The notes under the pieces were generated by a model, which worked only from the letters and a program-made list of their open reading frames with translations, was not told the origin of the DNA and did no database searches. This document shows positions 848 to 21,156 of a stretch of DNA of 64,000 nucleotides, piece by piece (within the stretch, counting starts at the first letter, position 1; each line of letters starts with the position of its first letter). Origin of the DNA: Bacteroidales bacterium (GTDB taxonomy: Bacteria > Bacteroidota > Bacteroidia > Bacteroidales > UBA12077); contig DAOWGM010000059.1 in the NCBI GenBank assembly GCA_030637515.1, positions 25,441-89,440 on the forward strand. Direction: 5' to 3'. A program made the position numbers and the translations under genes.

Positions 848-3800
848 ATGAGTGAAGAGATTTTAAAAGCCCTTATGCAATTGTTTGCAATAATTGCAAA
901 ACAAGACGAAGGAGTAGAATCCAGTGAAAGGGAGTTTGTTAAAAATTTCTTAACTCAACAGTTAAATAACGAAGCTGTACCTGAATACATTGCTCTTTTT
1001 GATGAAAAAGCAGGATTTACAGGTAAAAAAGTAGAAAAAGGGGAAAACGAAAAAGTAAAGTTAACATCAGTTAAAGACTCGGTAAGGATTTTAGGAATTT
1101 GTAAAAAAATTAATAAAACACTTACCCAACAACAAAAAGTTATTGTTCTCGTAAGACTTTTTGAATTGGTTAACGCCGACAGAAAGTTTTCAGAACAAAG
1201 AATGGCAATTATTAATACAGTTGCTGAAGTTTTTAAGCTTACCAAGGAAGAATTCTTAAGTATTGAAAGTTTTGTTATACACAACGAAATTTCAGAAATA
1301 GACAATGCTGACAACTTAATAATTAACGATAAAGAGAATCAATGCAAAGAAGCTAAACATGTTAAAGTTGAAGCTTTAGACGGCAATATTTTTATCCTGC
1401 AAGTTAAAAGTGTTGATCTCTATTTTATGCGTTATAATGGCAACGAAGATCTTTTTCTGAATGGGCTCCCGGTTAATAATTTAAGAATTTACCTTTTTGC
1501 AAGTGGTGGTACTATCAAGTTACAAAAAGGAAAACCTATTTATTACAGTGATATTGTTGCTCATTATTTAGCCGATAGCACATCAACAAAAATTTCTTAT
1601 ATAGCAAGAGATATTAACTTTGTTTTTCCTAATGGAGGTATTGGATTAAGAAATATTAATTTTTCTGAAGATCAAGGAAAATTAATTGGATTGATGGGTG
1701 CCAGTGGTGCAGGAAAAACTACTTTACTTAATGTTCTAACCGGATTAAATACTCCTACTTCAGGCGAAATTCTTATAAATGGGATTAATCTTCATAAAGA
1801 AAAAGAAAAGTTAGAAGGTGTAATTGGTTACATACCTCAAGACGATTTGTTAATTGAAGAACTTACCGTTTTTCAGAATCTTTACTATAATGCAAAACTC
1901 TGTTTTAATGATAAATCAGAAGAGGAAATAGTTGAGCTTGTTGATAAAACACTAACCAGCCTTGGCTTAATTGATCGTAAACATTTAAAGGTTGGATCTC
2001 CAATGAATAAGATGATTAGTGGAGGTCAGCGTAAAAGATTAAATATTGCTCTCGAACTTATTAGAGAACCTTCTATCCTTTTAGTAGATGAACCTACTTC
2101 AGGTCTTTCATCAAGAGACTCTGAGAATGTAATGGACTTGCTGCGGGAGCTTGCTCTTAAAGGAAAATTGATATTTGTTGTAATTCATCAACCATCATCA
2201 GACATATATAAAATGTTTGATAATATGATGATTCTTGATACAGGTGGCTATATGATATATTATGGGAATCCTGTTGAAGGAGTTATGTACTTTAAGCGAC
2301 TTGACGCTCAGATCAATAGCGATGTTGGGGAATGTCAAATTTGTGGTAATGTTAATCCCGAACTTATTTTTAACATTATAGAGGCAAAGGTAGTTGACGA
2401 ATTCGGAAAATACACACCAAAAAGAAAAATTTCTCCCCATAAATGGGAAGAAAACTTTAAAGAAAATGTTAAAATAGATGTAGTTGATCCAGTTCAAGAA
2501 GCTCCTCCTTCTACCTTAAGAATTCCTTCCTGGTTTAAACAGCTTAAGATTTACACAATTCGAGACTTTCTTTCGAAAATAAGCAACAAACAATATATAG
2601 CATTAAACTTACTTGAAGCTCCAATATTAGGATTCATGCTTTCGTTTATAATCAGATATATAGTTGACCCTAATTCTAATGTTTATATTTTCCGTGAAAA
2701 TGAAAATATTCAAATTTACATTTTCATGGCACTTATAGTAGTATTGTTTTTAGGGCTAACGGTTAGTGCCGAAGAAATTTTTCGTGATCGGAAAATACTA
2801 AAACGAGAAGCTTTTCTAAATTTAAGCCGGTCAAGTTATTTAATCTCTAAAATATTCATTCTTTTTACAATATCAGCTATACAGGCAATTTTATTTGTTT
2901 TAATTGCAAACGGTATTTTAGAAGTTAAAGCAATGAATTTCCAATACTGGTTTGCATTGTTTACTACAGCAGCTTTTGCAAACATGTTAGGACTAAATGT
3001 ATCTGCTTCGTTCAATTCTGCGGTAACTATATATATTCTTATCCCGCTGTTAATGATTCCAATGATGGTTTTAAGTGGGGCAATGTTTCCTTTCGATAAA
3101 ATGAATCGGTCAATTAGTAGTGTTAAGAAAGTTCCATTTATAGCAGAATTTATGCCAACAAAATGGTCTTTTGAAGCATTAATGGTAAACCAGTTTAAGA
3201 ATAACGAATTTGAAAAGAATTTTTATGAAATAGAAAAACGAGAAAGTAATGCCGATTTTAAACATGTTTATTATATTCCTGAATTAGAAAAATCTCTTAC
3301 ATATATTGAAGATAACTGGTATAAATCTCATGACAATGAAGAGGTAAAGGCAAATATAGTTAGTAGCCTGAATTTATTAAAAACTGAACTTCCTAAAGAA
3401 GAAAAAAGAACAGGAGTTATATTTGAGTCAGGTCATCAGCTAGATACAGCTTTACTTAATGATATTGTAATTGGCAAAACAAGAGAGTTTATTGAAAAAA
3501 TAGACTCTTATTATATGCTAATCTTCCAAAAAGCAAACAACGAAAAAAATAATATTATTGATCATCTTAAAAAAACAAACCCGCAATTGTACAGGGGGAA
3601 ACGTGATGCATACCATAACGAAAGCGTAGAAGATCAGGTTAAAAAAGTATTTGAAAAAAACAAGATTATCCGATACAAAGACGAATTAATACAACAGATA
3701 GATCCAATTTATAAAGATGCTGATGTTGAAGGATTCTTCAATTTTAGATCACATTTTTATGCACCACGAAAATATTTTGCAGGAAAATATCATGATACTT

Positions 3801-5381: not shown

Positions 5382-5411
5382 ATAACAGCTCATCTAATAA
5401 TGAGCTGTTAT
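5382..5411. terminator. Hairpin between convergent genes (11-bp stem ATAACAGCTCA/TGAGCTGTTAT)
   Basis: Perfect inverted repeat. The loop contains the TAG stop of the minus-strand gene. T-rich flank on the + side. Confidence 0.45.
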
Positions 5412-6392
5412 TTGTATATATACTATTAATCCTATAAGAATAATGATAATACTATTTAAATACCAGTTTCTCTTTAAGGTATAAAAATAGTTGGTTAGAA
5501 GAAAGGAAATGGGAATACTGATAAGGTAAATTATTTCAAATGAAACATATTTAAAAAAGAAAAATAAGATCAAACATATAACAAATAACCACCAATTAAT
5601 TACAAAATATTTCCTTGTTCTAATTTTTTTCATTTGAAAGTTCATAATAAGAACATAACTGGCATTTAGTATAATAAATAGTAGAAATCCATAAAATAAA
5701 TAATATGCTAAGTGAATATTATTAAATTCTTTTATAAAGCTAAATCCTTCTTTAACATTCTCAAGTAACAGAGTCAATTCTGACAAATCAAAAACTACAA
5801 AATAAAAGACAAAAACAAATAAATATGGCGTAAGAAAGCCTAAAAGGCTAACAATCCATTCTCTTCCTATAAATGGTCTTAAAACAGATAAGGATATCCA
5901 AATTACAATAAAAAATACTGAAAAAGGAACCCAAAATAGAGATGCAATAGATATAAAGAATCCAGCTAAATAAAGCTTATTTAAGGCATATTCCTCTCTG
6001 TAAATACTAAAAATATAATCAAGAGACAAGAATATAAATATTGTCCCTATAAGTGTTGGATTAAATCTTTGTAAGGGAATAAAACTACCTGAAATCAAAA
6101 TATAAAAAAAAGCAGGTAAATATGTTCTATAGTTAATTAGTATATATTTCCTATTAAACTGTATCAGCAAAAAAGCCTGAAATAAAACAAAAGCAAAACC
6201 CACAAATATTGAAGCAAGAGAATTAACCGGGATGATATTTCCAAAAAGGCGATACAAAGGCATACTTAGTATATCACCTGATATCTCTACTACATTTGTA
6301 TTTAAGATAGATAAACCCCAAATTAGAATTCCTGCCAAAACAATAAAAATAATTACTCCGGGTCGGTTACTTTTTAGAATAGAAGAAATCAT
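5394..6392 (-). CDS. Polytopic membrane protein of unknown function
   Basis: 332 aa, about 9-10 hydrophobic segments. Sits immediately downstream of purD on the same strand (5-nt gap), an arrangement I recall from other Bacteroidota (DUF6427-like). Confidence 0.6.
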   Translation of the reverse strand: MISSILKSNRPGVIIFIVLAGILIWGLSILNTNVVEISGDILSMPLYRLFGNIIPVNSLASIFVGFAFVLFQAFLLIQFNRKYILINYRTYLPAFFYILISGSFIPLQRFNPTLIGTIFIFLSLDYIFSIYREEYALNKLYLAGFFISIASLFWVPFSVFFIVIWISLSVLRPFIGREWIVSLLGFLTPYLFVFVFYFVVFDLSELTLLLENVKEGFSFIKEFNNIHLAYYLFYGFLLFIILNASYVLIMNFQMKKIRTRKYFVINWWLFVICLILFFFFKYVSFEIIYLISIPISFLLTNYFYTLKRNWYLNSIIIILIGLIVYIQITAHY

Positions 6393-6397
6393 GTGTG

Positions 6398-7666
6398 TTA
6401 TTTTAAATCAAATCCAATGTCACTTCTGTAATATTTACCATCAAATTGAATTGAATCAACATTTTGATAGCTTTTCTTAAGTGCTTCGAAGATATCTTTA
6501 CCATAAGATGAAACTGCAATTACGCGACCTCCATTAGTAACAATATCGGAAGAATCGTATTTAGTCCCTGCATGAAATACTAATGAATCATTAATTTCAG
6601 GTATTTCTATTTTTTTACCTTTTTCATAATTGCCGGGATATCCACCAGAAACCATCATTACAGTTGCACAAGCTTCCGGATTAAATTCAATTTTAGCTTT
6701 TTCAAGTGTTTCATTCTTAACATGTAAAAACAGATCAACAATATCTGATTTTATTCTTGGAACTACTACTTCTGTTTCAGGATCGCCCATTCTTACATTA
6801 TATTCAATTACAAAAGGATCTTCTCCTACTTTTATTAATCCAAAGAAAACAAATCCTTTATAGTCTATATTTTCATTAATCAACCCCTCTATAGTTGGTT
6901 TAATAACTCTTTCTTCAACTTTATCCATAAACCCCTTGTCTGCAAAAGGAACTGGCGAAACTGCTCCCATACCACCTGTATTTAATCCTGTATCAGCTTC
7001 GCCGATTCTTTTATAATCTTTTGCTTCAGGTAATATCTTATATGATTTACCATCGGTTAATACAAAAACAGACAATTCTATTCCACTAAGGAATTCCTCA
7101 ATTACCACAGTATCACTTGCTTTCCCAAACTGTCCCTGAAGCATTTCTTCAAGAGATTTTTTTGCTTCTTCAAGATCTTCCAGAATTAACACTCCTTTAC
7201 CTGCTGCTAGTCCGTCAGCTTTTAATACATATGGAGAGCTTACTTCTTCTAAGAATGCTTTCCCTTCATTAATACTTGCTTTTGAAAAGGATTTATATGA
7301 TGCTGTTGGAATATTATATTTGCTCATGAACTCTTTAGCAAAATCTTTACTTCCTTCGAGTATGGCTCCTGCCTTAACCGGACCAATTACAGATATGTTT
7401 TTTAAGCTTTTATCTTCCAGAAAATAATCTGCAATGCCATCTACTAAAGGTTGTTCCGGACCAACAACAACAAGCTCAACATTTTTCTCTATAGCAAATT
7501 TCTTTATCTTACTAAAATCTGATAAATTGAGATTAACATTTTCACCAAGTTCTGATGTTCCGGCATTGCCGGGAGCAATATAAAGTTTGTCAATTTTTTC
7601 ACTCTGAGTTATTTTCCAGGCAAGTGCATGTTCACGACCACCAGAACCTAAAAGTAGTATATTCAT
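6398..7666 (-). CDS. purD: Phosphoribosylamine--glycine ligase
   Basis: 'MNILLLGSGGREHALAWK' N-terminus, ATP-grasp core, 422 aa. Confidence 0.95.
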   Translation of the reverse strand: MNILLLGSGGREHALAWKITQSEKIDKLYIAPGNAGTSELGENVNLNLSDFSKIKKFAIEKNVELVVVGPEQPLVDGIADYFLEDKSLKNISVIGPVKAGAILEGSKDFAKEFMSKYNIPTASYKSFSKASINEGKAFLEEVSSPYVLKADGLAAGKGVLILEDLEEAKKSLEEMLQGQFGKASDTVVIEEFLSGIELSVFVLTDGKSYKILPEAKDYKRIGEADTGLNTGGMGAVSPVPFADKGFMDKVEERVIKPTIEGLINENIDYKGFVFFGLIKVGEDPFVIEYNVRMGDPETEVVVPRIKSDIVDLFLHVKNETLEKAKIEFNPEACATVMMVSGGYPGNYEKGKKIEIPEINDSLVFHAGTKYDSSDIVTNGGRVIAVSSYGKDIFEALKKSYQNVDSIQFDGKYYRSDIGFDLK

Positions 7667-7689
7667 AATCTGCTAATTTATTTTGTAAG

Positions 7690-7697
7690 CAAAGATA
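7690..7697 (-). promoter_or_regulatory. -7 box (TATCTTTG on minus strand) upstream of purD
   Basis: Plus strand CAAAGATA. 23 nt before the purD ATG. Confidence 0.4.
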
Positions 7698-7745
7698 ATT
7701 AACGGAAAGTTAGCCAACAAATTAATTTATCACTGCATATTAACA

Positions 7746-7774
7746 ATAAAAAAGGGCTCTTTTTCAGAGCCCTT
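7746..7774 (-). terminator. Rho-independent terminator of the SprB-repeat gene
   Basis: 9-bp stem AAGGGCTCT/AGAGCCCTT with a 5-nt loop, followed on the minus strand by a U-run (plus-strand A-run 7748-7753). Confidence 0.7.
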
Positions 7775-7785
7775 AATTGCATTAT

Positions 7786-10700
7786 TTACTGTATAATAAT
7801 TTTTCTATTGATACTTACCTCTTTATTATAGAGTCGTATGAAATATATTCCTTTCGGATAATTAGCAACATTAACTTCCATCCTGCTTTTTTCACCAATT
7901 AAATTTAAGTCTCTTATAAAAACAACACTTCCTGATGCGTTTACAAGCTGTATAGTAAAGTCTCCCTCATATTCTGTTTTAACAAATAATCTATCTGAAA
8001 CAGGATTAGGATAAATACGAATTTTCTCATCAGAAAAATAATCAACAATACCATCTGGAGAATCTACTGATAAAGTACTTGAAGTAATAGGACCGCAAGT
8101 ATTATCATCAGTCACATCAACAGTATAATCTCCTGGCAATAACGAGTTAAAAACACCTGTAGAATTTGTAACACTACCTGGGTTAAGAGTGTAACTTAAA
8201 TCTCCTGTACCACCAGAAGCTGAAACTGTAACAGATCCATCTGCCACTGTTGAAGCTGAAGCATTTGTTGCACTTTCAGAATCAATTGTTATAACAGGAG
8301 GATTAGTAATATCAACACTATCTTCGTATTCACAATTATTTGCATCGCTCGCAATAAAGTAATACCTGCCTGCCGATAAGCCACTCTGATTTTTATCGGT
8401 TATCGCATGACCAGATCCGCCTGATGTTGTCCAGAAGTAATCAAAAGTAGGTGTTCCTCCTGAAACATTAAGTAATATAGCACCATCATTCTCATTATTA
8501 CAAGTAATATCATAAACATCTGGTACAATAACAATTAAGCCAGGTTGAGTAATATTATATGGTTTTGTTTGTTCACAACTATTTGCATCTGTTACGGTTA
8601 CAGTAAAAGAACCTGCAGGCATATCATCTGCAATTGCTGTAGCCTGTGATCCAGGATCATCCCACAAATATGAAAAGCCTCCGGCTCCGCCAGAAGCATT
8701 TGCTGTTACCTGGGCATCATTATTACCATAACATGTTACTCCATCATCGAGTACAATATCTATTAATATTGCTAGAGCATCAGTAATAGTTGCATTATCG
8801 GGTGTTTCACAAGAGTTTGCATCCGTAACTGTCACATTATAAGTATCGGCAATAAGACCAGCAATATCCTGAGTTTTATCTCCTGTTGACCAATTATATG
8901 TATACGGTTCAGTACCTCCGGTAACAGTTAAGTCAACATATCCCGAATTATCTCCATTACAATCTAATTGCGGAGGAACATCGGTTGATGTATTCAGAAC
9001 TAATGGTTCTATAATTGTTACAGAATCTGTTTTAGAACCACTATCGTCAGTTACAGTAACTAAATATTTCCCTGCACTCAGACCTGTTGCAGTTGGAGAA
9101 TTTAATCCTCCATCATGACTCCATACATATGATAATGTTCCTGAATATCCTAAGGATGTAATTGTAGCTTCTCCATCTCCTAAGCTATTGCATGATACAT
9201 TTTGAATATCTGATTCTTTAAAATAAATAAATAATTGAGTAGAATCAATAATAGTTAGCGAAGTATCCGCAGTACAGCCATTATCGTCCAAAACGGTAAC
9301 TGAATAAAGTCCTCCATCGGTTAAACCAGTAATATCCTCTGTACTTGCAGAGAATAAATTCGGCCCGGTCCAGGTATATGAAGCATATGATTCTGCACCT
9401 CCTGTAACCACAAGGTTAACTGCACCATCCTGTGCAACAGGGACATTATTTATGTGAGTTACTGTTGTTCCTGTGAATACAATTGTATCTGGCCCAGATA
9501 TATTAATTAATGTATCTGCCGTACATCCTTTTTCATCTGTTACAGTAACAGAATATGTACCAGTAGTCAGTCCGGTCTGATCTTCAGCAAGAAGACTAAC
9601 ACCTGAACCTCCGTTTGACTCAAACCAATAGTAAGTATTGCCACCATTACCTCCGCTAACATTAAGACCAATTGCTCCTTCAGTACTATAACTGCAAGAG
9701 GTAACTTGTGTTATGTTTGGGTTAAACAGAAATGTATCTGGTTCGGTAATATTAAATGTAACTGAATCTATGGAAGATGCATTGTCAGTTATGGTTACAG
9801 TATATTTACCAGCAGTAAGGCTTGATGCTGTTGAATCATTTAATCCTCCATCATGACTCCAGTCATAATTAATAGGAGGTACTCCAAAAAATGGTGTGAC
9901 AATGAGTTCTCCATCGTTCCCTTTACCACATGTTACATTTTGCTTTTTAGTAAAGGCAACTGTAAATGGCGGATCATATTTAGCAACTAATAAGCAAGAA
10001 TTACCTGGTATTGGATTAGTAAATAAACTATCGCCAACTTGAACTTCTGTTGCTCTAAAATAACCTGCTAAATATCCATTATTTTCAGAATCAGAATCTA
10101 TTTCAAGTCCGGAATCATTTTCAGAATCTGAGCCATCAATACTTATTGCCTTTAAATCATTTCCATCAGTATCAATGAGTCCTAAAAAGATATCGTAATC
10201 ATCAGTACCACTTGACTTCAGAGTATCTTCACCAAAGATTATTTCGTTAGAAAAGTATCCGGTACAATATAAAAATCCATTTTGATAATTAATTCCACGA
10301 GCCCAATCATGTGAGGTACTACCATAACCTTTTCCCCAAATTAAATTTCCGTTTTTATTATATTTATAAATAAAAATATCATCGCCTCCATTTGTAGTTA
10401 TTGCAGAAGAAAGCTCAGTTAAAGTTGAATCAATTTGTATGTTTGTTCCCTCGAAATAACCTGTAAAGTATATGTTGCCATAGTTATCTCTTGATAATGT
10501 ACCGGATAATGCTTCTGCATCTGTACTGGTTCTTCTGGTCCATAATCCGTTTCCAGAGATATCTGTCTTGTAAATAAATACATCGGTATAACCTGATCCT
10601 GTTGAAACTTCATCTCCAGTTTCAAAAGAACAAGTACCATCAAATACACCTAAAAAATAATAGTTTTCATTATAGGCTTTTAAATCTGTGAATTTTGAAC

Positions 10701-11343
10701 TTAAAGTAGTAGTTGGAATATCCTTTGCAAACAGCGTGTTTCCTTCATCGTCTAATTTTGTAATAAACATACCATAACTATTACTATACCTTATATCAGT
10801 GGGAAAGGTAATTGAATCACGATAAACTCCTGCAACTACCAAATCTCCGTATTTATCAATATCAATTGAAGAAACAAATTGCTTAGCTTCATTATATGCT
10901 ATCTTTTTAGCCCATATCTCATTTCCGTTTAAGTCATATTTTGCAAGAAATATATCTAAAAAACCATCTGAGTTTAATACTGTTGGGTCGAAAGTAATAT
11001 CCTGCTGAAAACCACCAACTAAATAAATATATGTTCCATCGGAAACCATACTGCTTCCAAAATCTAAACCTCCACCGCCTAATTGTTTAAACCAATCAAT
11101 TGTATAGTCTGATTTATATTTAACAATATAAGCATCTCTGGAATTAGCAATATAATCAGTTCCAACGTTAATTGTTCCTAAATAGTCGCCAAATACATAA
11201 ACATTGCCATCTATTACTTCCTGACTAAGAATTTGGTTTATGTCAGCTGTAGAACTAATATAGTTACTAAGAACAAAATCCTGACTATTTGCAGAATTAC
11301 ATACTAACACGCTTAATATCAGTAAATTTAAAAAATTTCTCAT
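7786..11343 (-). CDS. Large secreted protein: SBBP-like beta-propeller repeats + multiple SprB repeats + T9SS type-A C-terminal sorting domain
   Basis: Signal peptide 'MRNFLNLLILSVLVCNSANS|Q'. Repeated 'D.F..KY...GN..W' units in the N-terminal approx 460 aa. At least 6 'C.G..DG.......GG...Y.Y.W' SprB repeats. C-terminus 'IRIYPNPVSDRLFV...GIYFIRL'. Confidence 0.85.
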   Translation of the reverse strand: MRNFLNLLILSVLVCNSANSQDFVLSNYISSTADINQILSQEVIDGNVYVFGDYLGTINVGTDYIANSRDAYIVKYKSDYTIDWFKQLGGGGLDFGSSMVSDGTYIYLVGGFQQDITFDPTVLNSDGFLDIFLAKYDLNGNEIWAKKIAYNEAKQFVSSIDIDKYGDLVVAGVYRDSITFPTDIRYSNSYGMFITKLDDEGNTLFAKDIPTTTLSSKFTDLKAYNENYYFLGVFDGTCSFETGDEVSTGSGYTDVFIYKTDISGNGLWTRRTSTDAEALSGTLSRDNYGNIYFTGYFEGTNIQIDSTLTELSSAITTNGGDDIFIYKYNKNGNLIWGKGYGSTSHDWARGINYQNGFLYCTGYFSNEIIFGEDTLKSSGTDDYDIFLGLIDTDGNDLKAISIDGSDSENDSGLEIDSDSENNGYLAGYFRATEVQVGDSLFTNPIPGNSCLLVAKYDPPFTVAFTKKQNVTCGKGNDGELIVTPFFGVPPINYDWSHDGGLNDSTASSLTAGKYTVTITDNASSIDSVTFNITEPDTFLFNPNITQVTSCSYSTEGAIGLNVSGGNGGNTYYWFESNGGSGVSLLAEDQTGLTTGTYSVTVTDEKGCTADTLINISGPDTIVFTGTTVTHINNVPVAQDGAVNLVVTGGAESYASYTWTGPNLFSASTEDITGLTDGGLYSVTVLDDNGCTADTSLTIIDSTQLFIYFKESDIQNVSCNSLGDGEATITSLGYSGTLSYVWSHDGGLNSPTATGLSAGKYLVTVTDDSGSKTDSVTIIEPLVLNTSTDVPPQLDCNGDNSGYVDLTVTGGTEPYTYNWSTGDKTQDIAGLIADTYNVTVTDANSCETPDNATITDALAILIDIVLDDGVTCYGNNDAQVTANASGGAGGFSYLWDDPGSQATAIADDMPAGSFTVTVTDANSCEQTKPYNITQPGLIVIVPDVYDITCNNENDGAILLNVSGGTPTFDYFWTTSGGSGHAITDKNQSGLSAGRYYFIASDANNCEYEDSVDITNPPVITIDSESATNASASTVADGSVTVSASGGTGDLSYTLNPGSVTNSTGVFNSLLPGDYTVDVTDDNTCGPITSSTLSVDSPDGIVDYFSDEKIRIYPNPVSDRLFVKTEYEGDFTIQLVNASGSVVFIRDLNLIGEKSRMEVNVANYPKGIYFIRLYNKEVSINRKIIIQ

Positions 11344-11353
11344 GGCTTTAGTT

Positions 11354-11506
11354 TTATGAAACTTGGTATGAAGTAGCTTCTTTTGTTACATCATGGGTCT
11401 CTCCGCCTTCAGTCTTTCCCTTGTCCAGACAAATTAACTTTGGAGTCTCCCAATTTAGTTTTTCAGAACAACTATTAGTCTCTATTTTATTCCCCTTTTT
11501 ATCCAT
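11354..11506 (-). CDS. Candidate lasso-peptide precursor (50 aa, not in ORF track)
   Basis: Hand translation: MDKKGNKIETNSCSEKLNWETPKLICLDKGKTEGGETHDVTKEATSYQVS*. Same strand as and downstream of B2. 'WETPKL' resembles the YxxPxL RRE-binding leader motif, there is a Thr-x-Gly junction (T32-E33-G34), Asp/Glu acceptors follow, and the C-terminal Ser is as in kinase-associated lasso precursors. Confidence 0.6.
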   Translation of the reverse strand: MDKKGNKIETNSCSEKLNWETPKLICLDKGKTEGGETHDVTKEATSYQVS

Positions 11507-11646
11507 ATCAACACATTTGTTTTTGATCTCAATAATTATGCAATTTTACTAATATTCAAGTAAATTTATTACGGTTTTATTGATTCTACAAGTTTTTGTT
11601 ATAAAAAATAGTTTTCAATACATTCAATTATAATAATTTTTTTCTT

Positions 11647-12084
11647 TTAGCTGTAAAATCCAACAACAGAAAATTTTTCATATCCTTTCTTTCCACTTAT
11701 AAAATCACTGCCAATTTTAAGCCAGGCATGTGCAATCAGTTTACTATTTTTATCTTTTGACACACCAAGATAAATTGTCGATTTTATCTGGTGTTTTTCC
11801 AATACTTTTTTCACTGCAATTGCCTCTTCAAAACATTTTACTTTCCATGGCAATCTTTTTTTTAGTCTTCGTTTATTTTTTCTCAAGACATCTATTAATT
11901 GAAGCTGATTCTCATTAACATCGACTTCAATCTCTTTTTTAAATTCCCCAAGAACAGAACTAAACCATTTTAAAGGAATAATTCGAACAAGAACAAAAGC
12001 ATAAATCAACCAAAAAAATGTTTGGTTTAAAATTATACGTTCTTTTTTATCTATCTTATAATATTTCTTTAACAGTTTGAACAT
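11647..12084 (-). CDS. Lasso peptide biosynthesis B2 protein (transglutaminase-like leader peptidase)
   Basis: 145 aa. 'WKVKCFEEAIAVKKVL' (catalytic Cys), 'LIAHAWLKIGSDFISG' (His/Asp). The N-terminal hydrophobic helix is typical of the family. Confidence 0.85.
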   Translation of the reverse strand: MFKLLKKYYKIDKKERIILNQTFFWLIYAFVLVRIIPLKWFSSVLGEFKKEIEVDVNENQLQLIDVLRKNKRRLKKRLPWKVKCFEEAIAVKKVLEKHQIKSTIYLGVSKDKNSKLIAHAWLKIGSDFISGKKGYEKFSVVGFYS

Positions 12085-12117
12085 ATTTGATGTTCATATT
12101 TTTAAACGTTTTAAGAG

Positions 12118-12408
12118 CTAATATGTTACAACAATCAACTCTTTTTCAATTAAATCCATAATAAATGGAGCAATGTCTTTAAAACATTTGTTTTTATCAA
12201 TATTGTAATTTGCTGTAATCATTTCAATCAGAGTAACTATTTTAATAGGATTTTTAATATTATCCCAAATAAAAGTTCCGGTTTTACCTAAACCATAATA
12301 TTCTCCTTTTTCGATACTCATCATTACTTTTTCACCATCCAGATCGCTGGTAAGAACATCGTTTTTTCTTTGTATAATTGTATCTAATGTAATTTCTATT
12401 TTAGCCAT
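12118..12408 (-). CDS. PqqD-family lasso peptide B1 protein (RiPP recognition element)
   Basis: 'LDGEKVMMSIEKGEYYGLGKTGTFIWDNI....VTLIEMITANYNID' is a PqqD-like pattern. I prefer the ATG at 12408 (MAKIEITLD), 1 nt after the upstream TAG, over the track start at 12438. Confidence 0.8.
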   Translation of the reverse strand: MAKIEITLDTIIQRKNDVLTSDLDGEKVMMSIEKGEYYGLGKTGTFIWDNIKNPIKIVTLIEMITANYNIDKNKCFKDIAPFIMDLIEKELIVVTY

Positions 12409-12409
12409 A

Positions 12410-13276
12410 CTAATAAATAGGTTTATTGTTAGTATCAATATATTCGTATTTCATCATAACAGATTTATGTTTTGAAATAACTTCTTCAGTTGTTTTTTGA
12501 TTTAAACAATTTTTCCAATCACCCGTTTTCCCCTTTCTAAAAAATGACTTTGATTTAATCATCTTTTCTTTAAATCCGCCTTCTTTCTCCTGATTTGCAA
12601 GAACTGAAAAATCACTTTTTTTGATAGCTTCATGAATTTCTGAATCTGGCTTTTCAATTCCAATAAATTTTACTGCATCTTTAAAACTATCAAATGTGTT
12701 GCTTATCATATCTTCATAACGAATAAAATGAACTGGGATATTTTTTTGCTCTGTCCAGCTTTTTACATGATCTGACCAAGATCCTAAAATTTGCCGGAGT
12801 TGATTTTGAAGCTTGTCATTCTGATTACAAAAAGCAAAATTTGAATCATTCAATGTTTTAACCATTTTCTCAACTGGTTTGGCACTATGATAAGCAAAAG
12901 AAACCAAAACATCCAGTGGATTTCTGATAATATAAACCACTCCCCTTGTTATTTCTGATGGAAAAAGAGGTTCACCTCTTTCTGTTGCATAGTACTTATC
13001 GTGAACTTTCTTAAACAACAATTCATTGCTTTCAGCAGATTGCATTCGATACACTTCCGGTCGTAAAGAATCAATTTCATTAAAAGTTAAATCAGATGAC
13101 GAAAGACCAGTATATTCATCAAATATTTTTCTGGAACTGGAAATTGAAGTGTCAGCCAGATCGTTAATATTAGCAGGGACATCCGAATCGTTTAACAAAT
13201 TCGTAAGAAATACTCTAAACCAGGTATTCCCTGACTTTGGATAACTTGCAAGCCATATAATGTTTTTTTTATACAT
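12410..13276 (-). CDS. PAPS-dependent sulfotransferase (Sulfotransfer_1 type)
   Basis: 5'-PSB motif 'SYPKSGNTWFRVFL' and 3'-PB motif 'VVYIIRNPLDVLVSFAYH'. C-terminal 'FFRKGKTGDWKN' matches the family GxxGxW region. Confidence 0.85.
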   Translation of the reverse strand: MYKKNIIWLASYPKSGNTWFRVFLTNLLNDSDVPANINDLADTSISSSRKIFDEYTGLSSSDLTFNEIDSLRPEVYRMQSAESNELLFKKVHDKYYATERGEPLFPSEITRGVVYIIRNPLDVLVSFAYHSAKPVEKMVKTLNDSNFAFCNQNDKLQNQLRQILGSWSDHVKSWTEQKNIPVHFIRYEDMISNTFDSFKDAVKFIGIEKPDSEIHEAIKKSDFSVLANQEKEGGFKEKMIKSKSFFRKGKTGDWKNCLNQKTTEEVISKHKSVMMKYEYIDTNNKPIY

Positions 13277-14165
13277 CCAGATTTAGCTTTTTCAATAAAA
13301 AATCTCCAAATTCATTTAGCAATAATGGTGATTGAGGCCTGGTAACCTTATAAACCTTTATTTCAGGTAAAAGTTTATTTAAAACCTGAAAATGATCCTG
13401 TTGTTTATCGAGGCCTTGAACAAATCTGTAACGATATGTATTGTTTTTAACTGTATTAAATTTTTTAATTCCGGATAACTCTTCAAATTCAAATCCAGGT
13501 GAATTTTTAGTGTTTATAATGATAATATTTTTTAAAGGAAGAGGCTCATTATAATAGTTTTCATTAACGGGTAACTGAAATTTCATCATGTCAGGCCTTA
13601 TCTCTTCCAAAGATTCATCGTGCATTTTTAATTTTTGCAAAACATCGTTCCATAATTTCATTTTGGGAAATCCGGGAACAACTTCAAGATTATGATTTAC
13701 AACACTAATATCGTCAGCTAAAACCTGAAAAGCCTGACTAACAAAATAAGCTGCAATAGAAGACTTTCCTACTCCACTTAATCCTGTAAAGACGGTTGCC
13801 GATTTACCAAATTTTACGGCACTTCCATGAACCGGTAATAAACCTCGCTGAATAAATAATGCGCCAAAAGCCGAACCTAAAAGAAATAAACGAACTTCTT
13901 TATCAATTTCCTTTTTTAAAAGCTTTACACTTATTTGGTTTCCATTAGCGACATAGTACTTAGCTATATTATTAACTTCCAGTAAGAATTCATTTTTAGC
14001 TGCCTGATACATTACACCTTTATTAATTATTTTATCAAGCTTTGTGGGAGCTTCCCCAATCTTTATCTCCACATCAGGTGTACCCCCAGAAACCAATAAT
14101 TCTGGAATTTCAAAATCAGATTTAATAATTAATCCGAATGCCTTATATGTAAAGGTTTTTACCAT
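13269..14165 (-). CDS. HPr-kinase-like (HprK-related) lasso precursor kinase
   Basis: 298 aa. P-loop 'FTGLSGVGKSSIAAYF' in the C-terminal-domain position. The stop overlaps the sulfotransferase ATG (ATGTATAA). Confidence 0.75.
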   Translation of the reverse strand: MVKTFTYKAFGLIIKSDFEIPELLVSGGTPDVEIKIGEAPTKLDKIINKGVMYQAAKNEFLLEVNNIAKYYVANGNQISVKLLKKEIDKEVRLFLLGSAFGALFIQRGLLPVHGSAVKFGKSATVFTGLSGVGKSSIAAYFVSQAFQVLADDISVVNHNLEVVPGFPKMKLWNDVLQKLKMHDESLEEIRPDMMKFQLPVNENYYNEPLPLKNIIIINTKNSPGFEFEELSGIKKFNTVKNNTYRYRFVQGLDKQQDHFQVLNKLLPEIKVYKVTRPQSPLLLNEFGDFLLKKLNLDV

Positions 14166-14183
14166 TTCTTTTCTTGCTTAGCA

Positions 14184-14191
14184 CAAATTTA
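14184..14191 (-). promoter_or_regulatory. -7 box (TAAATTTG on minus strand) for the kinase-sulfotransferase-B1-B2 operon
   Basis: Plus strand CAAATTTA. 18 nt before the kinase ATG (14165). Confidence 0.5.
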
Positions 14192-14258
14192 CACGAAAAT
14201 GCCTTAAAAGTAAGTATTATTGGAGTTTTTGCCTGTAGAATTATCCTTTTCAATTGCT

Positions 14259-14266
14259 TATATTTG
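14259..14266 (+). promoter_or_regulatory. -7 box (TATATTTG) for the cyclase-nucleotidyltransferase operon
   Basis: Perfect TAnnTTTG, 15 nt before the ATG at 14282. It lies inside the track's longer ORF, which argues for the shorter start. Confidence 0.5.
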
Positions 14267-14281
14267 TTAAAAGTCTTTTTT

Positions 14282-16165
14282 ATGAACTCCATTTTCGGAA
14301 GAATAAATACTAGTAAAAATCAAATTGATCAATCTCTTTTTAACAATAGTATTGATGTATTATCAGTATTCCCTGATGTCAAAAAAGAAATCAGTATAGA
14401 TAATAATACAGCTTTAGGAGAGGTTCTTTTTCCTCCATTTATACAAGCAGGTATTCAACATTCATCGAAAAGAATTGTTTCTGATTCAAAGCTTTACAAC
14501 TTACCAGATCTTGTGCAAAAGTTAAATATAAATGAAAATCAAGCCGAAGAAGGTTTTGTTATTTTAAAAGCCTATGAAAAGTGGGGCAATGATTGTGTTA
14601 AATATTTTATTGGAGATTTTGCTTTTGCAATTTGGGACACGAATACGGAAGAACTCTTTTGTGCACGTGATCATTTGGGAGTAAAGCCTTTTCATTATTT
14701 TTTTAATGATGAAACATTTGTTTTTAGTTCTGATATCAGTGCTGTTCTCGCGCAAAAGGATCTTCAGTTTAGTATTGATGAACAATACATTGCAGATACT
14801 ATCTCAATTATAAGTTCGAAAAAAATCAGAACAAATTATAATGAGATTAAGAAGTTGCCTCCTGCCTCTTACTTATTTTTAAAAAATGAGAACTTAGAAA
14901 TTAAACAATACTGGGAATTACAAACTCAAAAAACCATTCAGAAAAAAGACTCGGAAATTATTGAAGATTTTAAAACTTTACTTTTAAAAGCGGTAAAGTG
15001 CAGATTAAATAATGATAATTCAACCGGGACAGAGCTTAGTGGAGGTATTGACTCTTCGTGCATTACTGCAATATCTTCCAAGTTTGCTCAAATAAAAACT
15101 TTTTCTCATGTTTTACCTGATCATTTATTGGAAAAAATACATCCTTTTAAAGATGAGCGTGATTATATAAATCTTCTCGATGATTATTGTAACATTCAGG
15201 ATCGATATTTTATAACTTCAGAAAACAAATCTTTACATCGTGCAATTGAAGAAAATGTAATTGATTATAAAGGAATTTCTCAACAGAACTTTGGAGTTTT
15301 TTCTGATTGTTTGTATCAACAAGCAATGAAAGGAAATGTTTCTGTATTGCTTTCAGGATTTGGTGGAGATGAAGTAGTTACTTCAAAATCTAAAGGGTAT
15401 CTTTCTGAGTTAGCTTCAAATAGACAGTGGAAAGAACTAAAAAAAGATTTGAAGAATCAAAAGCCCAATAAATACAGATATTTAAGAACTCTATTAAAGT
15501 ATTTACTAAAGTTTAAAGCTCCGTTTATTTACAAGTTTATTTCTTTAAGAAAATATAAAAGACCGTTTTGGATAGATAAATATGATAATTTGGCAATAAG
15601 CAAAGAGTTCTCCCAAGAATTTAATATTAAAGAACGATACTTATTGTATTACAAAAAACGAAACTGTTCATCTCTGCAAAAAAATGCTATTGAAAGAATT
15701 ACACATCCGCATGTTTCGCAACGACTTGAATACTGTTCGTTAATTGCACGAAAGTACGGAATCGAATATCGATATCCTTTGCTTGACATACGTTTAATTG
15801 AGTGTTATCTGGCAATGCCTACGAGATTAAAAGCACAAAACGGAATCGGAAGATATGCAATCAGAAAAGCAATTGAGGGAATTGTGCCTGAAAAAATCCA
15901 ATGGAGAAATGATAAAAGCGGAGCTACCATTCCAAGCATTTTTATGAGAATGATAAATGATAAAGAACAAATATCAGAACTTATAAATCGGGCAAAGAAA
16001 ATTGATATTATTAAAAAATACATCGATCTTGAAAAATTTGAAAGATGGTTTCATAAACTCTGTCAAAGATCTGAAAACAAACAAAAAAATATTAATCCGG
16101 CTGCTTTTTATAATTACTTAAAGCTAATTATATTTATAGAACAAAATCCTAATCTTTTTAAATGA
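14282..16165 (+). CDS. Lasso peptide isopeptide-bond-forming cyclase (asparagine synthetase B homologue)
   Basis: PP-loop 'TELSGGIDSSCITA'. AsnB-like N-domain 'GDFAFAIWDTNTEELFCARDHLGVKPFHYF'. The N-terminus MNSIFG lacks the Cys2 glutaminase nucleophile. Confidence 0.85.
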   Translation: MNSIFGRINTSKNQIDQSLFNNSIDVLSVFPDVKKEISIDNNTALGEVLFPPFIQAGIQHSSKRIVSDSKLYNLPDLVQKLNINENQAEEGFVILKAYEKWGNDCVKYFIGDFAFAIWDTNTEELFCARDHLGVKPFHYFFNDETFVFSSDISAVLAQKDLQFSIDEQYIADTISIISSKKIRTNYNEIKKLPPASYLFLKNENLEIKQYWELQTQKTIQKKDSEIIEDFKTLLLKAVKCRLNNDNSTGTELSGGIDSSCITAISSKFAQIKTFSHVLPDHLLEKIHPFKDERDYINLLDDYCNIQDRYFITSENKSLHRAIEENVIDYKGISQQNFGVFSDCLYQQAMKGNVSVLLSGFGGDEVVTSKSKGYLSELASNRQWKELKKDLKNQKPNKYRYLRTLLKYLLKFKAPFIYKFISLRKYKRPFWIDKYDNLAISKEFSQEFNIKERYLLYYKKRNCSSLQKNAIERITHPHVSQRLEYCSLIARKYGIEYRYPLLDIRLIECYLAMPTRLKAQNGIGRYAIRKAIEGIVPEKIQWRNDKSGATIPSIFMRMINDKEQISELINRAKKIDIIKKYIDLEKFERWFHKLCQRSENKQKNINPAAFYNYLKLIIFIEQNPNLFK

Positions 16166-17328
16166 TTGATTTTAAAAATCATATTGAACAAAAATTCACT
16201 GATGAGTTAAAACTTCTGATTTTTCTTTCTCAGGGTGATTTGAATGATATCTCTTTCTTAGGAAATTTAGACAAGATTGATTGGGATGAATTTGTAGAAT
16301 TGACAATAAAACATAGGTTAGTATCGCATGTGTTACAGCATTCGGAATTTTTAGCTGAGAAATTTCCAATCCCCACTTACGAAAAATTAATTGACACCAG
16401 ATTAAAACACTCCAAAACATCACTTAATTATGCAATTCACGCTATTCGGATATTTCAAGAATTTAAAGAAAAAAGTATTCCTCATATATTTTTTAAAGGG
16501 CCATTACTTTCTCTTGAATTATATAATGATATTGGATACAGAAATTTTGGTGATATTGATGTATTGGTTGAAAAGAAAGATGCTGAGAAAGCAAAAAATC
16601 TACTTGAAGACTTAGGCTTTACTTGTATTTATCCTAAAATTAAACTTACTGAAAAACAAAAAGAAGTAAATTACAGTATTAGCCATCATTATCAGTTTAA
16701 ACATCCTGTACAAACTATTCATATTGAGCTACACTGGAATATTACAAATCCGAAAACTTTTTTTGGAATAGAATCAAAAGATATTATTTCAAACTCCATT
16801 AATTTAAAAGTGTCGAACTATGAATTGCCTTATATTTCAAAAATTGAAAATATCGTTTTTCAGGCTGCACACGGATCTATTCATCAATGGTATAGATTGT
16901 TCTGGATAAAAGATTTTTCGAAACTGCTCACAATAGTTCATTCTGAAGATCTGAAAAAAGCGTATGATTTATCAAAGAAACTTAAGCTGCAAAACTGTTT
17001 TATTCAAGCATGCTTATTATCAAATTTGCTTTACAAAACTGAAGTTCCAGATTTTGAGAATTTTAAGATTAAGAAGAATCTGAATAAGATTCCATTAAGC
17101 TCAATCACTGGAAAAGATTTAAGCAAGCAAGGATTAAAAGGAAAAATTAAATTCGTTTTATACAGAATCCGTTTAAAACCCGATTTCAATTATTATTTCG
17201 AATTAATTTACAGGCTAAGAACTCATTTGTCGGATTGGGAATTAATAAAGCTTCCAAAAAATCTATTCTTTTTATATTATGCTTTAAGACCTTTCTTACT
17301 GATTTATAAATTTCTATTTAGAAAATGA
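16162..17328 (+). CDS. NTP_transf_5 (PF14907-like) nucleotidyltransferase-fold tailoring enzyme
   Basis: 'GYRNFGDIDVLVEKKD' nucleotidyltransferase signature and 'IHIELHWNI'. ATGA overlap with the cyclase stop. Confidence 0.7.
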   Translation: MIDFKNHIEQKFTDELKLLIFLSQGDLNDISFLGNLDKIDWDEFVELTIKHRLVSHVLQHSEFLAEKFPIPTYEKLIDTRLKHSKTSLNYAIHAIRIFQEFKEKSIPHIFFKGPLLSLELYNDIGYRNFGDIDVLVEKKDAEKAKNLLEDLGFTCIYPKIKLTEKQKEVNYSISHHYQFKHPVQTIHIELHWNITNPKTFFGIESKDIISNSINLKVSNYELPYISKIENIVFQAAHGSIHQWYRLFWIKDFSKLLTIVHSEDLKKAYDLSKKLKLQNCFIQACLLSNLLYKTEVPDFENFKIKKNLNKIPLSSITGKDLSKQGLKGKIKFVLYRIRLKPDFNYYFELIYRLRTHLSDWELIKLPKNLFFLYYALRPFLLIYKFLFRK

Positions 17329-17943
17329 AGTATCTGAAAAATCAATTGAGCTAAATTGAAATCCTTTCGCCGAATAAAATTTTAGTACTTCAGGCAAAAC
17401 ATATTTGAGATTTTTTTCTGCTTTTATAGTATCATGAAAAACAATAATAGATCCTGGGTTTACTGAATTTATTGTTTTTTTCAGGCATGTTTCTTTCTTT
17501 AAGCTATTGTTATAATCTCTTGTAAGAACATCCCACATTACTATTTTAAACTCTTTTTTTAGTTGTCTTATTTGTGATGGTTTTATTCTACCATATGGAG
17601 GTCGAAAAAGATTAGAATTAATATACTCTGAAGCTTTTCTAACATTCTGAAAATACTTTTCATTACTCGTACGCCATCCCTTAATATGAGAATAGCCATG
17701 ATTGCCTACAGAATGCCCTTCGGCAATTATTTGCTTGTAAAGTTTTTGATTATTTTCAACGTTCTTCCCTATACAAAAGAAAGTGGCTTTGGCATTATAT
17801 TCTTTTAAAACAGAAATAACCCATTCGGTTACTCCCAATGTTGGACCATCGTCAAATGTTAAAAAAAGCTCCTTATTCCGATCAGGGAAACTCCAGATTA
17901 AATCTTTAAAAAATCTTGCAACTATATTTTCTTTCTTTATCAC
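17314..17943 (-). CDS. Polysaccharide deacetylase (NodB/CE4 family)
   Basis: 'LFLTFDDGP', 'GHSVGNHGYSH', 'FRPPYG' CE4 motifs. Confidence 0.85.
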   Translation of the reverse strand: MIKKENIVARFFKDLIWSFPDRNKELFLTFDDGPTLGVTEWVISVLKEYNAKATFFCIGKNVENNQKLYKQIIAEGHSVGNHGYSHIKGWRTSNEKYFQNVRKASEYINSNLFRPPYGRIKPSQIRQLKKEFKIVMWDVLTRDYNNSLKKETCLKKTINSVNPGSIIVFHDTIKAEKNLKYVLPEVLKFYSAKGFQFSSIDFSDTSFSK

Positions 17944-17946
17944 CTT

Positions 17947-20900
17947 TTAATTAAACTGCTCAATATATTGCATAAACTTTTGCTCAATCTGACTATTTAA
18001 CTCCTGCTGATTATTACTTGCAGTAATTCTGTAAAGCTCCTGCAAAATATAAAGATCCATTTGTTTTTCCATCGTAATATCCTTCGTTCCAGATGCAAGC
18101 TGAGGTTTAAGATTAAAATAATAATCAAGCTCAACAAACATTTTGCTGCTAAGTCTTTCTACCAAAGAGTTTGCCTTTTCTGTTGCACCTGCATGATAAT
18201 ACGCTGATATAACAGAAAGTAAAGTACTATTGAATGGTATCTTATGATCAGGAAATAATTCCATACAACGATCAAGGACTAATAAAGCAGAATCGTTCTT
18301 TCCTTCTTCAATTAATTTCTCAGCTAATCTTCCAAAACTACTTCGTAGGTTTGAAAACATCCTGGTATTATTTTCATCAAAATAGATGTCGTTTTCTTCA
18401 ATTCCACCCCAACGAAATTTATTCATAATATTATCGTACATCAACTCAGAATCAACTTCACCGCTATGAAATCGCTCCTTCTTTGCTTCAACCGGAACCA
18501 ACTGATATGTTAATCCATCAACTTTAAAATATTTTTGCAGATTAAAATACTTCGTACTGGTTACAGTCATTGCCCAATAAACAGGTCTCTCCCAATTGTT
18601 TGTTGCTAAAATATCGAGCAACATTAATCCGTCTTTATATAAGTATCCTTGATTAAAATTCCATTGCATCTCGTCAACAATTCGATCTCTGTATTTTTCA
18701 TCTACAATACCTTTTTCAATAACATTATCAGGATCAATCTTTAATTTATATTTCTTAGATGGAATATAATTTATCATTTCGTTTGCTACAAAAGGAGATT
18801 TAATCTTTGTTTTAGCATCATCGCTCGCAATAAAATCAACCACATCTCTTACATTAACTGCTTGCCCAACCCTGTCGTAGATCGGTAAAATATCACGAAC
18901 TCCTTTATGATATTTATCGTGAGTTAAAGAGAATGGCATTCGTTCAGCTTCATATGATTTACGACTCATTTGATCAATATACCATGCAGCTCTTAAATAA
19001 CTTAAATTACAAACTTTTATATCTGTTCTAATTCCTTCAACTTCCTGAGCATACCAAAGTGGGAATGTATCATTATCACCATTTGTAAATAAAATCGCAT
19101 TCTTTTTACACGAATTAAGATAATTATATGCAAGATCACGAGCTGTATATCTTCCTGATCTGTCATGATCGTCCCAGTTTTCAGAAGCCATAATTCCAGG
19201 AACTAAAACCAAAGTAATTACTGTCACCAATATTGCAGAAATTGACTTTGGAGCTTTTTTGCTTAAATAGCTAATAAGTCCTGCTACTCCTAATCCAATC
19301 CAAATTGAGAAAGCATAATAAGAACCTGCAAAAGCATAATCCCTTTCACGAGGCTGTATAGGATACTGATTTAAATAAACAACTATTGCTATACCTGTTA
19401 ATACATATAACATTAATACAACCGCGAAGTCTTGTTTGTTTTGTTTATAATGAAACATTAATCCGACAAGTCCGAGTAAAAGCGGCAACATAAAATATTT
19501 GTTTCTGCCAGGATTATTTTTAAGATGCTCCGGAACCTGATCCTGATCACCCAATCTTGCATTATCTACAAATGGAATTCCACTTATCCAATTTCCTTTC
19601 AACACATTACCATGACCTTGAATATCATTTTGTCGTCCTGAGAAATTCCACATAAAATACCTGAAATACATATGACCAATCTGGTATTTTACAAAAAATG
19701 CAATATTATTTGCAAAAGAAGGATTAACTCTTTTTTCAACTTTGCCGGCTCCATTTCTTACAGAAATCTTCTTGTCCGATATATTAACCCATTTATTATA
19801 TTCATTAATGTGTTTCTTATCGCTGCTATACATTCTCGGGAAAAGTGATGTAAAACGCGGATCAAATTCTACTTCAATTTTATAATCAGCAATCTCATAT
19901 CTTCCATCTTTTTTAATATAAACAGGTTTTGTTTTTTTATTACTTATAGCGGGAGCATCAAAAGACTGACCGTAAAATAATGGTCTGTCGCCATATTGTT
20001 CGCGATTCAAATAATATAATAAATCAAATACATTGTCCGGATTGTTTTGATCCATAGGAGGATCAGCAGCAGAACGAATAATAACCATTGCAAATGAAGA
20101 ATAACCAATTAGAATTACGGTTAATCCCATAATTACAGTGTTTAAAACAACTTTCCCTTTGCGATGTGTATATTTTATTCCCCATACAATTAATCCAATA
20201 ACAAGGAAAACATAAAATAATGCTCCTGAATTATATGGCAAACCAAATCCGTTTACAAACAATAAATCAAACCACGATGCAACTTTCAGAAATCCTGGAA
20301 TAATAACATACATAATAGATGCAAGAAGTATTACAGAAATTACTAAAGCATAGAAAATACCTTTTTTCGTTACTTCGTATCTTTTAAAATAATAAACAAA
20401 AGCAATAGCAGGAATTGCTAATAAGTTCAATAAGTGAACTCCAATAGATAATCCAAGTAAATATGCTATAAAAATTAACCATCGGTTCGCATATTTGTTA
20501 TCAGATTCGTTTTCCCATTTTAAAATTGCCCAAAATACAACAGCGGTAAATAACGAAGAGGTTGCATAAACCTCAGCCTCAACAGCTGAAAACCAAAAAG
20601 AATCAGAAAATGTGTATGCTAAAGCACCAACAATTCCACTTCCTATAATTGTAATTATATTTCCAATTGAAAAATTATCTTCTTTAATAAAAATCTTTTT
20701 TGCAAAGTGCGTAATTGTCCAGAACAAAAACAAGATTGTAAAAGCACTCGACATTGCAGAAAGAATATTAACCATTTTTGCTGCATTTTCAGGTCCTGAA
20801 GAAAACAATGTAAAGATTCTTCCTAAAATCATAAAAAATGGTGCTCCCGGTGGATGTCCAACTTCAAGTCTGTATGCCGATGCAATAAATTCACCACAGT

Positions 20901-21003: not shown

Positions 21004-21156
21004 ATCCTGAATTATTGATTTAATAAAATTTAAGGTCTAAAATTAAAACAAATAACGATAAATTACGGAGTTAATTATAACTAATCTTTAATTTATAGCT
21101 TATTATGAATCTGATCTAATCTATTTTTCTTATTTTCGGAAACATATTATATATGT

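Follow-up and report, generated by a model that had tools for sequence, protein, structure and literature searches.

The window, that is, the whole stretch of 64,000 nucleotides of Bacteroidales DNA that was analyzed, carries on its reverse strand an open reading frame of 50 codons and a TAA stop (positions 11354-11506), which is translated into the 50-residue peptide MDKKGNKIETNSCSEKLNWETPKLICLDKGKTEGGETHDVTKEATSYQVS. The last 21 codons of the frame (11357-11419, reverse strand) encode GKTEGGETHDVTKEATSYQVS. With Thr32 placed at position −2, the peptide is divided into a leader, M1 to E33 (11408-11506), and a core, G34 to S50 (11357-11407), which reads GGETHDVTKEATSYQVS. The elements of the precursor all lie on the reverse strand. 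The predicted binding motif for the B1 recognition element, W19-E-T-P22-K-L24, occupies positions 11435-11452; its Trp is invariant across the family, and its Pro and Leu are at least 90% conserved. The leader-core junction T32-E33-G34-G35 (11402-11413) is defined by its conservation across 71 precursors. Three codons of the core deserve attention: that of Glu43 (11378-11380), the putative isopeptide acceptor and the only acidic core residue that is conserved across the family; that of Tyr47 (11366-11368), a candidate steric plug at the acceptor +4 position, where the relatives usually have an aromatic residue; and that of the C-terminal Ser50 (11357-11359), a putative phosphorylation site occupied by Ser in 71 of 71 precursors.

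As the frame is found 140 nucleotides downstream of a B2 protease gene within a full lasso cluster, and as it has 70 further distinct homologues, it is a real gene and not a chance reading frame. The precursor has no match in Pfam or NCBIfam, even at an E-value of 10. A scan for sigma-70 promoters and terminators around the gene, with a model unsuited to Bacteroidetes, performed no better than on shuffled sequence, and Rfam and tRNA scans of the whole window were empty.

The B2 leader peptidase (11647-12084, reverse strand) is a transglutaminase-like Cys protease of 145 residues (NF033537, 66.5 bits with a cut-off of 33; PF13471), whose C84 and H119 are invariant in the 27 family B2 proteins compared. 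It is preceded by the gene of B1, a PqqD-type RiPP recognition element (12118-12438, reverse strand; NF033536, 95.5 bits with a cut-off of 80; PF05402). This frame is drawn from a TTG at 12438, and its true start is probably Met11 at 12408. The best match of B1 in the PDB is PbaB1 (9x90, E = 1e-18); the actinobacterial TbiB1 matches at 2e-8. PDB sequence searches gave no solved homologue of B2, and for the cyclase only generic Asn synthetases. Two further genes complete the reverse-strand group. A sulfotransferase (12410-13276; PF00685, E = 7.7e-30), a tailoring enzyme, is kept in all 31 related loci that have enough flank. An HPr-kinase-like P-loop protein (13269-14165), the candidate kinase for the C-terminal Ser of the precursor, is likewise kept in all related loci; its assignment draws on PF07475 (23.3 bits, below the cut-off of 33.3), on weak matches to TIGR04352 and TIGR00679, and on a GLSGVGKS P-loop.

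The forward strand carries an Asn-synthetase-like lasso cyclase (14282-16165; PF00733, 132.6 bits) with an SGGIDS PP-loop. Among the NCBIfam models, that of the lasso cyclase, NF033535, scores best (371 bits, below the cut-off of 525). The frame listed from a TTG at 14174 is probably too long, as homology begins near Met37 (14282); a start at that Met would leave 116 bp of intergenic sequence, from which the operons of the kinase and of the cyclase diverge. The next gene (16162-17328, forward strand; PF14907, 158.6 bits) encodes a nucleotidyltransferase-fold protein of the NTP_transf_5 family, conserved in related loci. PsmN, without which no hexose is added to the phospho-Ser of pseudomycoidin, has been assigned to the same uncharacterized family (PMC6993621). 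The predicted functions of B2, the PqqD-type B1, the sulfotransferase, the HPr-kinase-like protein, the cyclase and the NTP-transferase make up a complete lasso gene cluster. No ABC exporter is present among the genes adjacent to it. Tyr47 was considered as a general target of the sulfotransferase and was rejected: one related locus keeps the enzyme (L014, 5518-6381) with a core, GGPSTAPFEDTTNDPTPS, that has no Tyr, so that the near-invariant Tyr is not a general target.

A gene for a giant secreted protein (7786-11343, reverse strand) begins about 10 nucleotides past the precursor stop codon. In L002 and L003, too, it is the gene next after the precursor, and its orthologue in L001 (10166-14284) contains SprB repeats together with a T9SS domain, Por_Secre_tail. 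The synteny of the window with L001 extends beyond the cluster to genes for a TMEM260-like protein, a deacetylase, the SprB/T9SS protein, purD and DUF6427. The lasso cluster lies in the same chromosomal slot of distinct Bacteroidales genomes, between purD/DUF6427 and the deacetylase and TMEM260-like genes (window 5394-22278, L001 1-20153). The enzymes of the two loci are 55-69% identical and the cores are wholly unlike, GGETHDVTKEATSYQVS in the window and GGPVADTESYTGDLS in L001. The locus is vertically inherited and has a hypervariable core.

Homologues of the precursor were collected by word index and by a full HMM search over 1.8 billion representatives, which gave 45-46 relatives. Only 32 clusters at 50% identity score at E ≤ 0.001, and the precursor family is therefore small. 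The loci L004-L039, each of which holds a single precursor, were found by scanning GTDB genomes and JGI metagenomes, and 25 more distinct precursors were read from such loci. The resulting 71 distinct precursors, that of the window included, come almost all from uncultured Bacteroidales (MAGs). Wherever the contigs of the related loci are long enough, the same enzymes adjoin the homologue in the same order.

The leaders of the 71 precursors follow the pattern W-x-x-P-x-L-x-x-L-x4-T-x. Position 32 is Thr in every one of them. Position 33 is E in 62 and otherwise variable (E/F/K/D/N/L/G). Position 34 is Gly in 64, Asn in three, Thr in two, and Ser and Asp in one each. Position 35 is Gly in 70, the exception being L035, which has G-S in place of G-G. 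A hypervariable stretch then leads to a single conserved Glu, which is usually followed by an aromatic residue at Glu+4. The cores are short, 14-20 residues. Six members (L014, L027, P0008, P0022, P0033 and P0034) lack any aromatic residue after the acceptor Glu, and no steric plug is evident in their tails, of which ESTTGNAVS and EDTSSSDGS are examples. This suggests that the aromatic-free members are either unthreaded or use the C-terminal modification as the plug.

The initial annotation had stated that canonical cleavage after T32-E33 places the acidic residues of the core at positions 3, 6 and 10, and translation and counting bear this out: from G34 they are E3, D6 and E10, with none at 7-9. 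Glu43 is residue 10 from G34 and residue 9 from G35, so that an Asp or Glu acceptor at core position 7, 8 or 9 is absent from the window peptide with Thr at −2 and appears, as E9, only when counting starts at Gly35. Most relatives do have such an acceptor, E9, in the canonical register. Of the 70 distinct cores, counted from position 34, 52 have the conserved Glu at 9, four have it at 8 and 14 have it at 10. The initial annotation named as its refutation a conserved acidic residue at 7-9 from a conserved T-x-G junction in the homologues. The alignment does not refute it for this peptide, and the family analysis strengthens the case: most relatives carry E43 at 9, the window peptide and 13 others carry it at 10, and none of these 14 long-spacing cores has an Asp or Glu at positions 7-9. 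E36 and D39 were also examined as acceptors and are ruled out, as position 36 is mostly non-acidic and even the closest relatives (P0002-P0004, L021) have N or K at position 39.

On a tree of the B2 proteins the long spacing turns up at least four times in separate lineages, represented by the window with L021, by L005, by L010, and by L032 with L033. Near-identical leaders are combined with different spacings in three pairs of precursors, P0009 and P0014, P0016 and P0006, and L033 and L038. The nearest enzyme set to that of the window, L004, serves a core with the 9-spacing, and the two sets are 74% identical in the cyclase, 84% in B2, 89% in B1 and 89% in the kinase. The additional residue is therefore a recurrent and maintained variant and not a one-off defect. 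An aromatic residue is present at acceptor +4 in 14 of the 14 long cores and in 35 of the 56 others (Fisher's exact p = 0.007, uncorrected for phylogeny).

The length of the ring depends on which residue is residue 1, and several lines of evidence point to Gly34. The precursor contains the [Y/W]xxPx[L/V/I] leader motif, and Thr is at −2 if G34 is residue 1. For comparison, the sequence of the paeninodin precursor PadeA is MKKQYSKPSLEVLDVHQTM, up to the cleavage site, followed by AGPGTSTPDAFQPDPDEDVHYDS. This sequence reproduces both masses published for the in-vitro cleavage of the paeninodin precursor by B1 and B2, 2416.99 Da for the core and 4814.21 Da for the GP-precursor (PMC5067487). From this agreement, paeninodin has P−12, L−10 and T−2, and its core begins A1-G2 and has its acceptor at D9. 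A 2026 paper on the crystal structure of PbaB1-PbaA numbers the paeninodin-like leader W−15/P−12/L−10/L−7 (PMC13381572). With G34 as residue 1, the W19, P22 and L24 of the window motif become W−15/P−12/L−10, and W19, P22, L24 and L27 together correspond exactly to W−15/P−12/L−10/L−7. The paeninodin precursor HMM, NF033524, aligns the family member P0045 in the same register, with cleavage between T-G and G-G. All of 117 cluster representatives of the paeninodin family have Gly as residue 2 and the acceptor at 9, and their residue 1 is A, G or S. As Gly2 is invariant in all 117, the invariant Gly35 looks like residue 2; position 34, which is 90% Gly, behaves as residue 1, and the variable position 33 behaves as the −1 residue. 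The junction predicted after T32-E33 and before G34 is therefore the one supported by homology, because the leader register is that of the experimentally cleaved paeninodin type and because the B1 protein is nearest to PbaB1. The initial placement of a conserved T-x-G junction holds in this family, with Thr in 71 of 71 and Gly at position 35 in 70 of 71, and the register is that of paeninodin.

The window cluster resembles that of paeninodin from Paenibacillus dendritiformis in the split B1 and B2 proteins, in the candidate HPr-kinase-like enzyme, in the C-terminal Ser, in a leader of the form W/Y-x-x-P-x-L-x-x-L-D-x3-T-x with identical spacing, and in the Gly at residue 2. Most relatives of the window peptide also have the acceptor at position 9, as paeninodin does, whereas the window peptide has one extra ring residue. 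The two systems differ in their hosts, Bacteroidales and Bacillota, in the acceptor, which is Glu here and Asp in paeninodin, and in the core, which is short and hypervariable here and fixed as AGPG..PD in paeninodin. Unlike the paeninodin cluster, that of the window includes a sulfotransferase and lacks an adjacent ABC exporter. NF033524, whose core is [A/G/S]-G-P-G-x3-P-D9, does not match the window precursor and gives P0045 20.7 bits, below the cut-off of 27; of this core the window family shares only Gly2. The window cluster is predicted to work in the manner of paeninodin and pseudomycoidin, and its precursor belongs outside the NF033524 family.

The pseudomycoidin cluster of Bacillus pseudomycoides (psm) likewise has a kinase and a protein of the NTP_transf_5 family (PsmN), both of which act on the C-terminal Ser. 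It differs in having an Ala1-Asp ring that is aligned with A1-D9 of paeninodin, in having no sulfotransferase listed, and in coming from the Bacillota. In microcin J25 the ring begins at the first Gly of a T-x-G-G junction cleaved before that Gly; unlike the window system it has a fused B protein, an 8-residue ring, a long loop and no tailoring enzymes. The proposed ring size is supported as feasible by a ring-expanded variant of fusilassin (fuscanodin), made in vitro with Thermobifida fusca enzymes. It has a 10-residue macrolactam, and the cyclase, whose natural ring is of 9 residues, takes variants that are longer or shorter by one. That variant is an engineered substrate of actinobacterial origin with a Y−17/P−14/L−12 leader and no C-terminal modification, in all of which it is unlike the window peptide.

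By combining these data, a pathway for the maturation of the peptide can be proposed. The B1 protein would bind the leader through W19-x-x-P22-x-L24, as PbaB1 binds PbaA. The B2 protease would then cut after Thr32-Glu33, freeing Gly34, if the W−15/P−12/L−10/T−2 register is taken as a guide. The HPr-kinase-like enzyme is expected to phosphorylate the invariant Ser50, a modification of the C-terminal Ser that has been shown for paeninodin and pseudomycoidin (PMC6993621; PMC9266682), and the NTP-transferase-fold protein and the sulfotransferase may add further groups. The cyclase would activate Glu43 and join it to the amine of Gly34. As the window peptide has one ring residue beyond the ancestral x1-G2-x6-E9 layout, this closure would form a macrolactam of 10 residues. 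Tyr47 and the modified C-terminal Ser would hold the tail in place.

The proposal that the frame encodes the precursor of a paeninodin-type lasso peptide of an uncultured Bacteroidales, the product having a 10-residue macrolactam, is about evenly poised between right and wrong, and the particular closure from Gly34 to Glu43 in the window peptide carries the same even balance. The way in which so large a ring might be tolerated is suggested by the tail. The C-terminal modifications of the Ser of pseudomycoidin have been proposed to help keep its tail threaded (PMC6993621). Because six members of the Bacteroidales family have no aromatic residue in the tail, a modified C-terminal Ser may be the plug here, as proposed for pseudomycoidin, and with such a plug the usual upper limit on ring size would relax. 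The C-terminal modification is probably what holds the tail. The broader reading, that the window peptide and about 20% of its Bacteroidales family are natural lasso or lariat peptides with a Gly1-Glu10 macrolactam, tolerated through a bulky phospho-, glyco- or sulfo-modified C-terminal Ser rather than through side-chain plugs alone, falls just short of an even chance.

Several considerations weigh against the 10-residue ring. No natural lasso peptide is known to have one; the Tyr plug may be too small for it; conservation is higher at position 35 than at position 34; and with Gly35 as residue 1 the rings of the family become 7, 8 and 9, exactly the known range. The last two lead to the main alternative, namely that Gly35 is residue 1 throughout the family and B2 cuts after position 34, with the invariant Thr at −3. 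Most members would then have a ring of 8 residues, a few a ring of 7, and the window peptide one of 9 (Gly35-Glu43), so that the three spacings would span the range of all characterized lasso peptides. Gly occupies position 35 in 70 of 71 precursors, and position 34 is G64/N3/T2/S1/D1. A ring closed from N, T or D as residue 1 is rare or has no known example; for Asn1 the first demonstration came only in 2025 (PMC12670498). Cleavage after position 34 would nevertheless break the Thr(−2) rule, for which the documented exceptions are only Ile/Val(−2) (PMC10368454), and the −2 site would be held by a residue that varies widely (E/F/K/D/N/L/G). The leader would shift as well, to W−16/P−13/L−11, which is neither the W−15/P−12/L−10 of paeninodin nor the canonical Y−17/P−14/L−12. 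In the sister paeninodin family Gly2 is invariant anyway (117 of 117), and L035 has G-S rather than G-G at the junction. In BsfA from Bradymonas sediminis, whose cluster also contains a kinase, the Thr(−2) rule is broken by an Ile at −2, the register having been set by the YxxPxL alignment (PMC10368454); there the identity of the −2 residue changes and the register is kept, whereas a start at Gly35 would keep the Thr and shift it to −3. On balance this reading is unlikely, though it has to be reckoned with. The two products would be 57 Da apart, with predicted masses of 1789.81 Da for the Gly34-Glu43 ring and 1732.79 Da for the Gly35-Glu43 ring.

The initial annotation had left two options, a cleavage in a shifted register or a ring of, for example, 10 residues, and the choice between them stands after the analysis of the family. 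Besides these, a third outcome is possible, in which cyclization is poor or absent or a host peptidase trims Gly34. Cleavage would be canonical and the long-spacing cores poor substrates, whose products would be linear, branched-cyclic and unthreaded, or Gly35-Glu43 rings formed after an aminopeptidase has removed Gly34. A change of one residue in the ring usually cuts lasso production sharply (PMC13352647), and unmodified pseudomycoidin has been reported not to be threaded, while host proteases can remove its leader (PMC6993621). Against this, the +1 spacing is present in at least four lineages and persists through diversification of the core (L032, L033); the cluster genes are intact in those long-core loci with enough contig (L005, L010, L021); and all 14 long cores keep the Glu, the aromatic residue at +4 and the C-terminal Ser. 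The recurrence, the intact genes and the kept features of the core point to selection on a functional product, and the poor-substrate explanation is improbable. The remaining candidate of the initial annotation, a ring of 7 residues from Gly30 to Glu36, or an acceptor at Glu36 or Asp39 in some other register, follows from the arithmetic of the single window sequence alone and can practically be dismissed, since the family alignment, in which position 30 is G/S/A/E/R/M/K/D/T and neither E36 nor D39 is conserved, refutes a start at Gly30, which would moreover place the conserved Thr inside the ring.

A 10-residue ring in the window peptide would be larger than that of any characterized natural lasso peptide. 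Reviews and tools up to 2025-2026 still state 7-9 as the natural range, and when the literature was searched for natural 10-residue lasso rings, nothing relevant came up. The claim that either outcome, shifted cleavage or larger ring, would be new agrees with the literature that could be searched, in which no natural precedent for either was found. Only three phyla are represented among the lasso structures in the PDB; the Bacteroidota are not among them, and no lasso peptide of that phylum has been structurally characterized.

Rings of 7-9 residues and Thr(−2) are two rules built into the tools for lasso mining and structure prediction (RODEO-type scoring, LassoPred), and in the window family at least one of the two appears to fail in nature. 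Counted in the canonical register, one in five members has no acceptor at 7-9, and precursors of this sort would therefore be overlooked or wrongly annotated. Should the ring be of 10 residues, the known lasso scaffold space would be widened and ring size would be linked to locking of the tail by post-translational modification; if cleavage is shifted, the understanding of B2 specificity would change. The family also provides natural enzyme sets that are near-isogenic (74-89% identity) and yet act on cores of different ring spacing, which is useful for the question of how cyclases measure ring size.

The leader pattern also caught a different RiPP family, represented by L020 (precursor at about 3663-3800) and L040-L047. 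The leader of these precursors, ...KKKWETPKLICLYRGRPEEAVL, is followed by a Cys-rich core with a terminal Thr. Among the neighbors in L020 (2116-7821), which showed no lasso genes, are those of two radical-SAM enzymes, of a PqqD protein and of a protein of the NTP_transf_5 family. As the Cys-rich family also carries it, the W-x-x-P-K-L-I-C-L leader is common to two RiPP classes, which resembles the sharing of a leader by paeninodin and LPP (PMC13381572).
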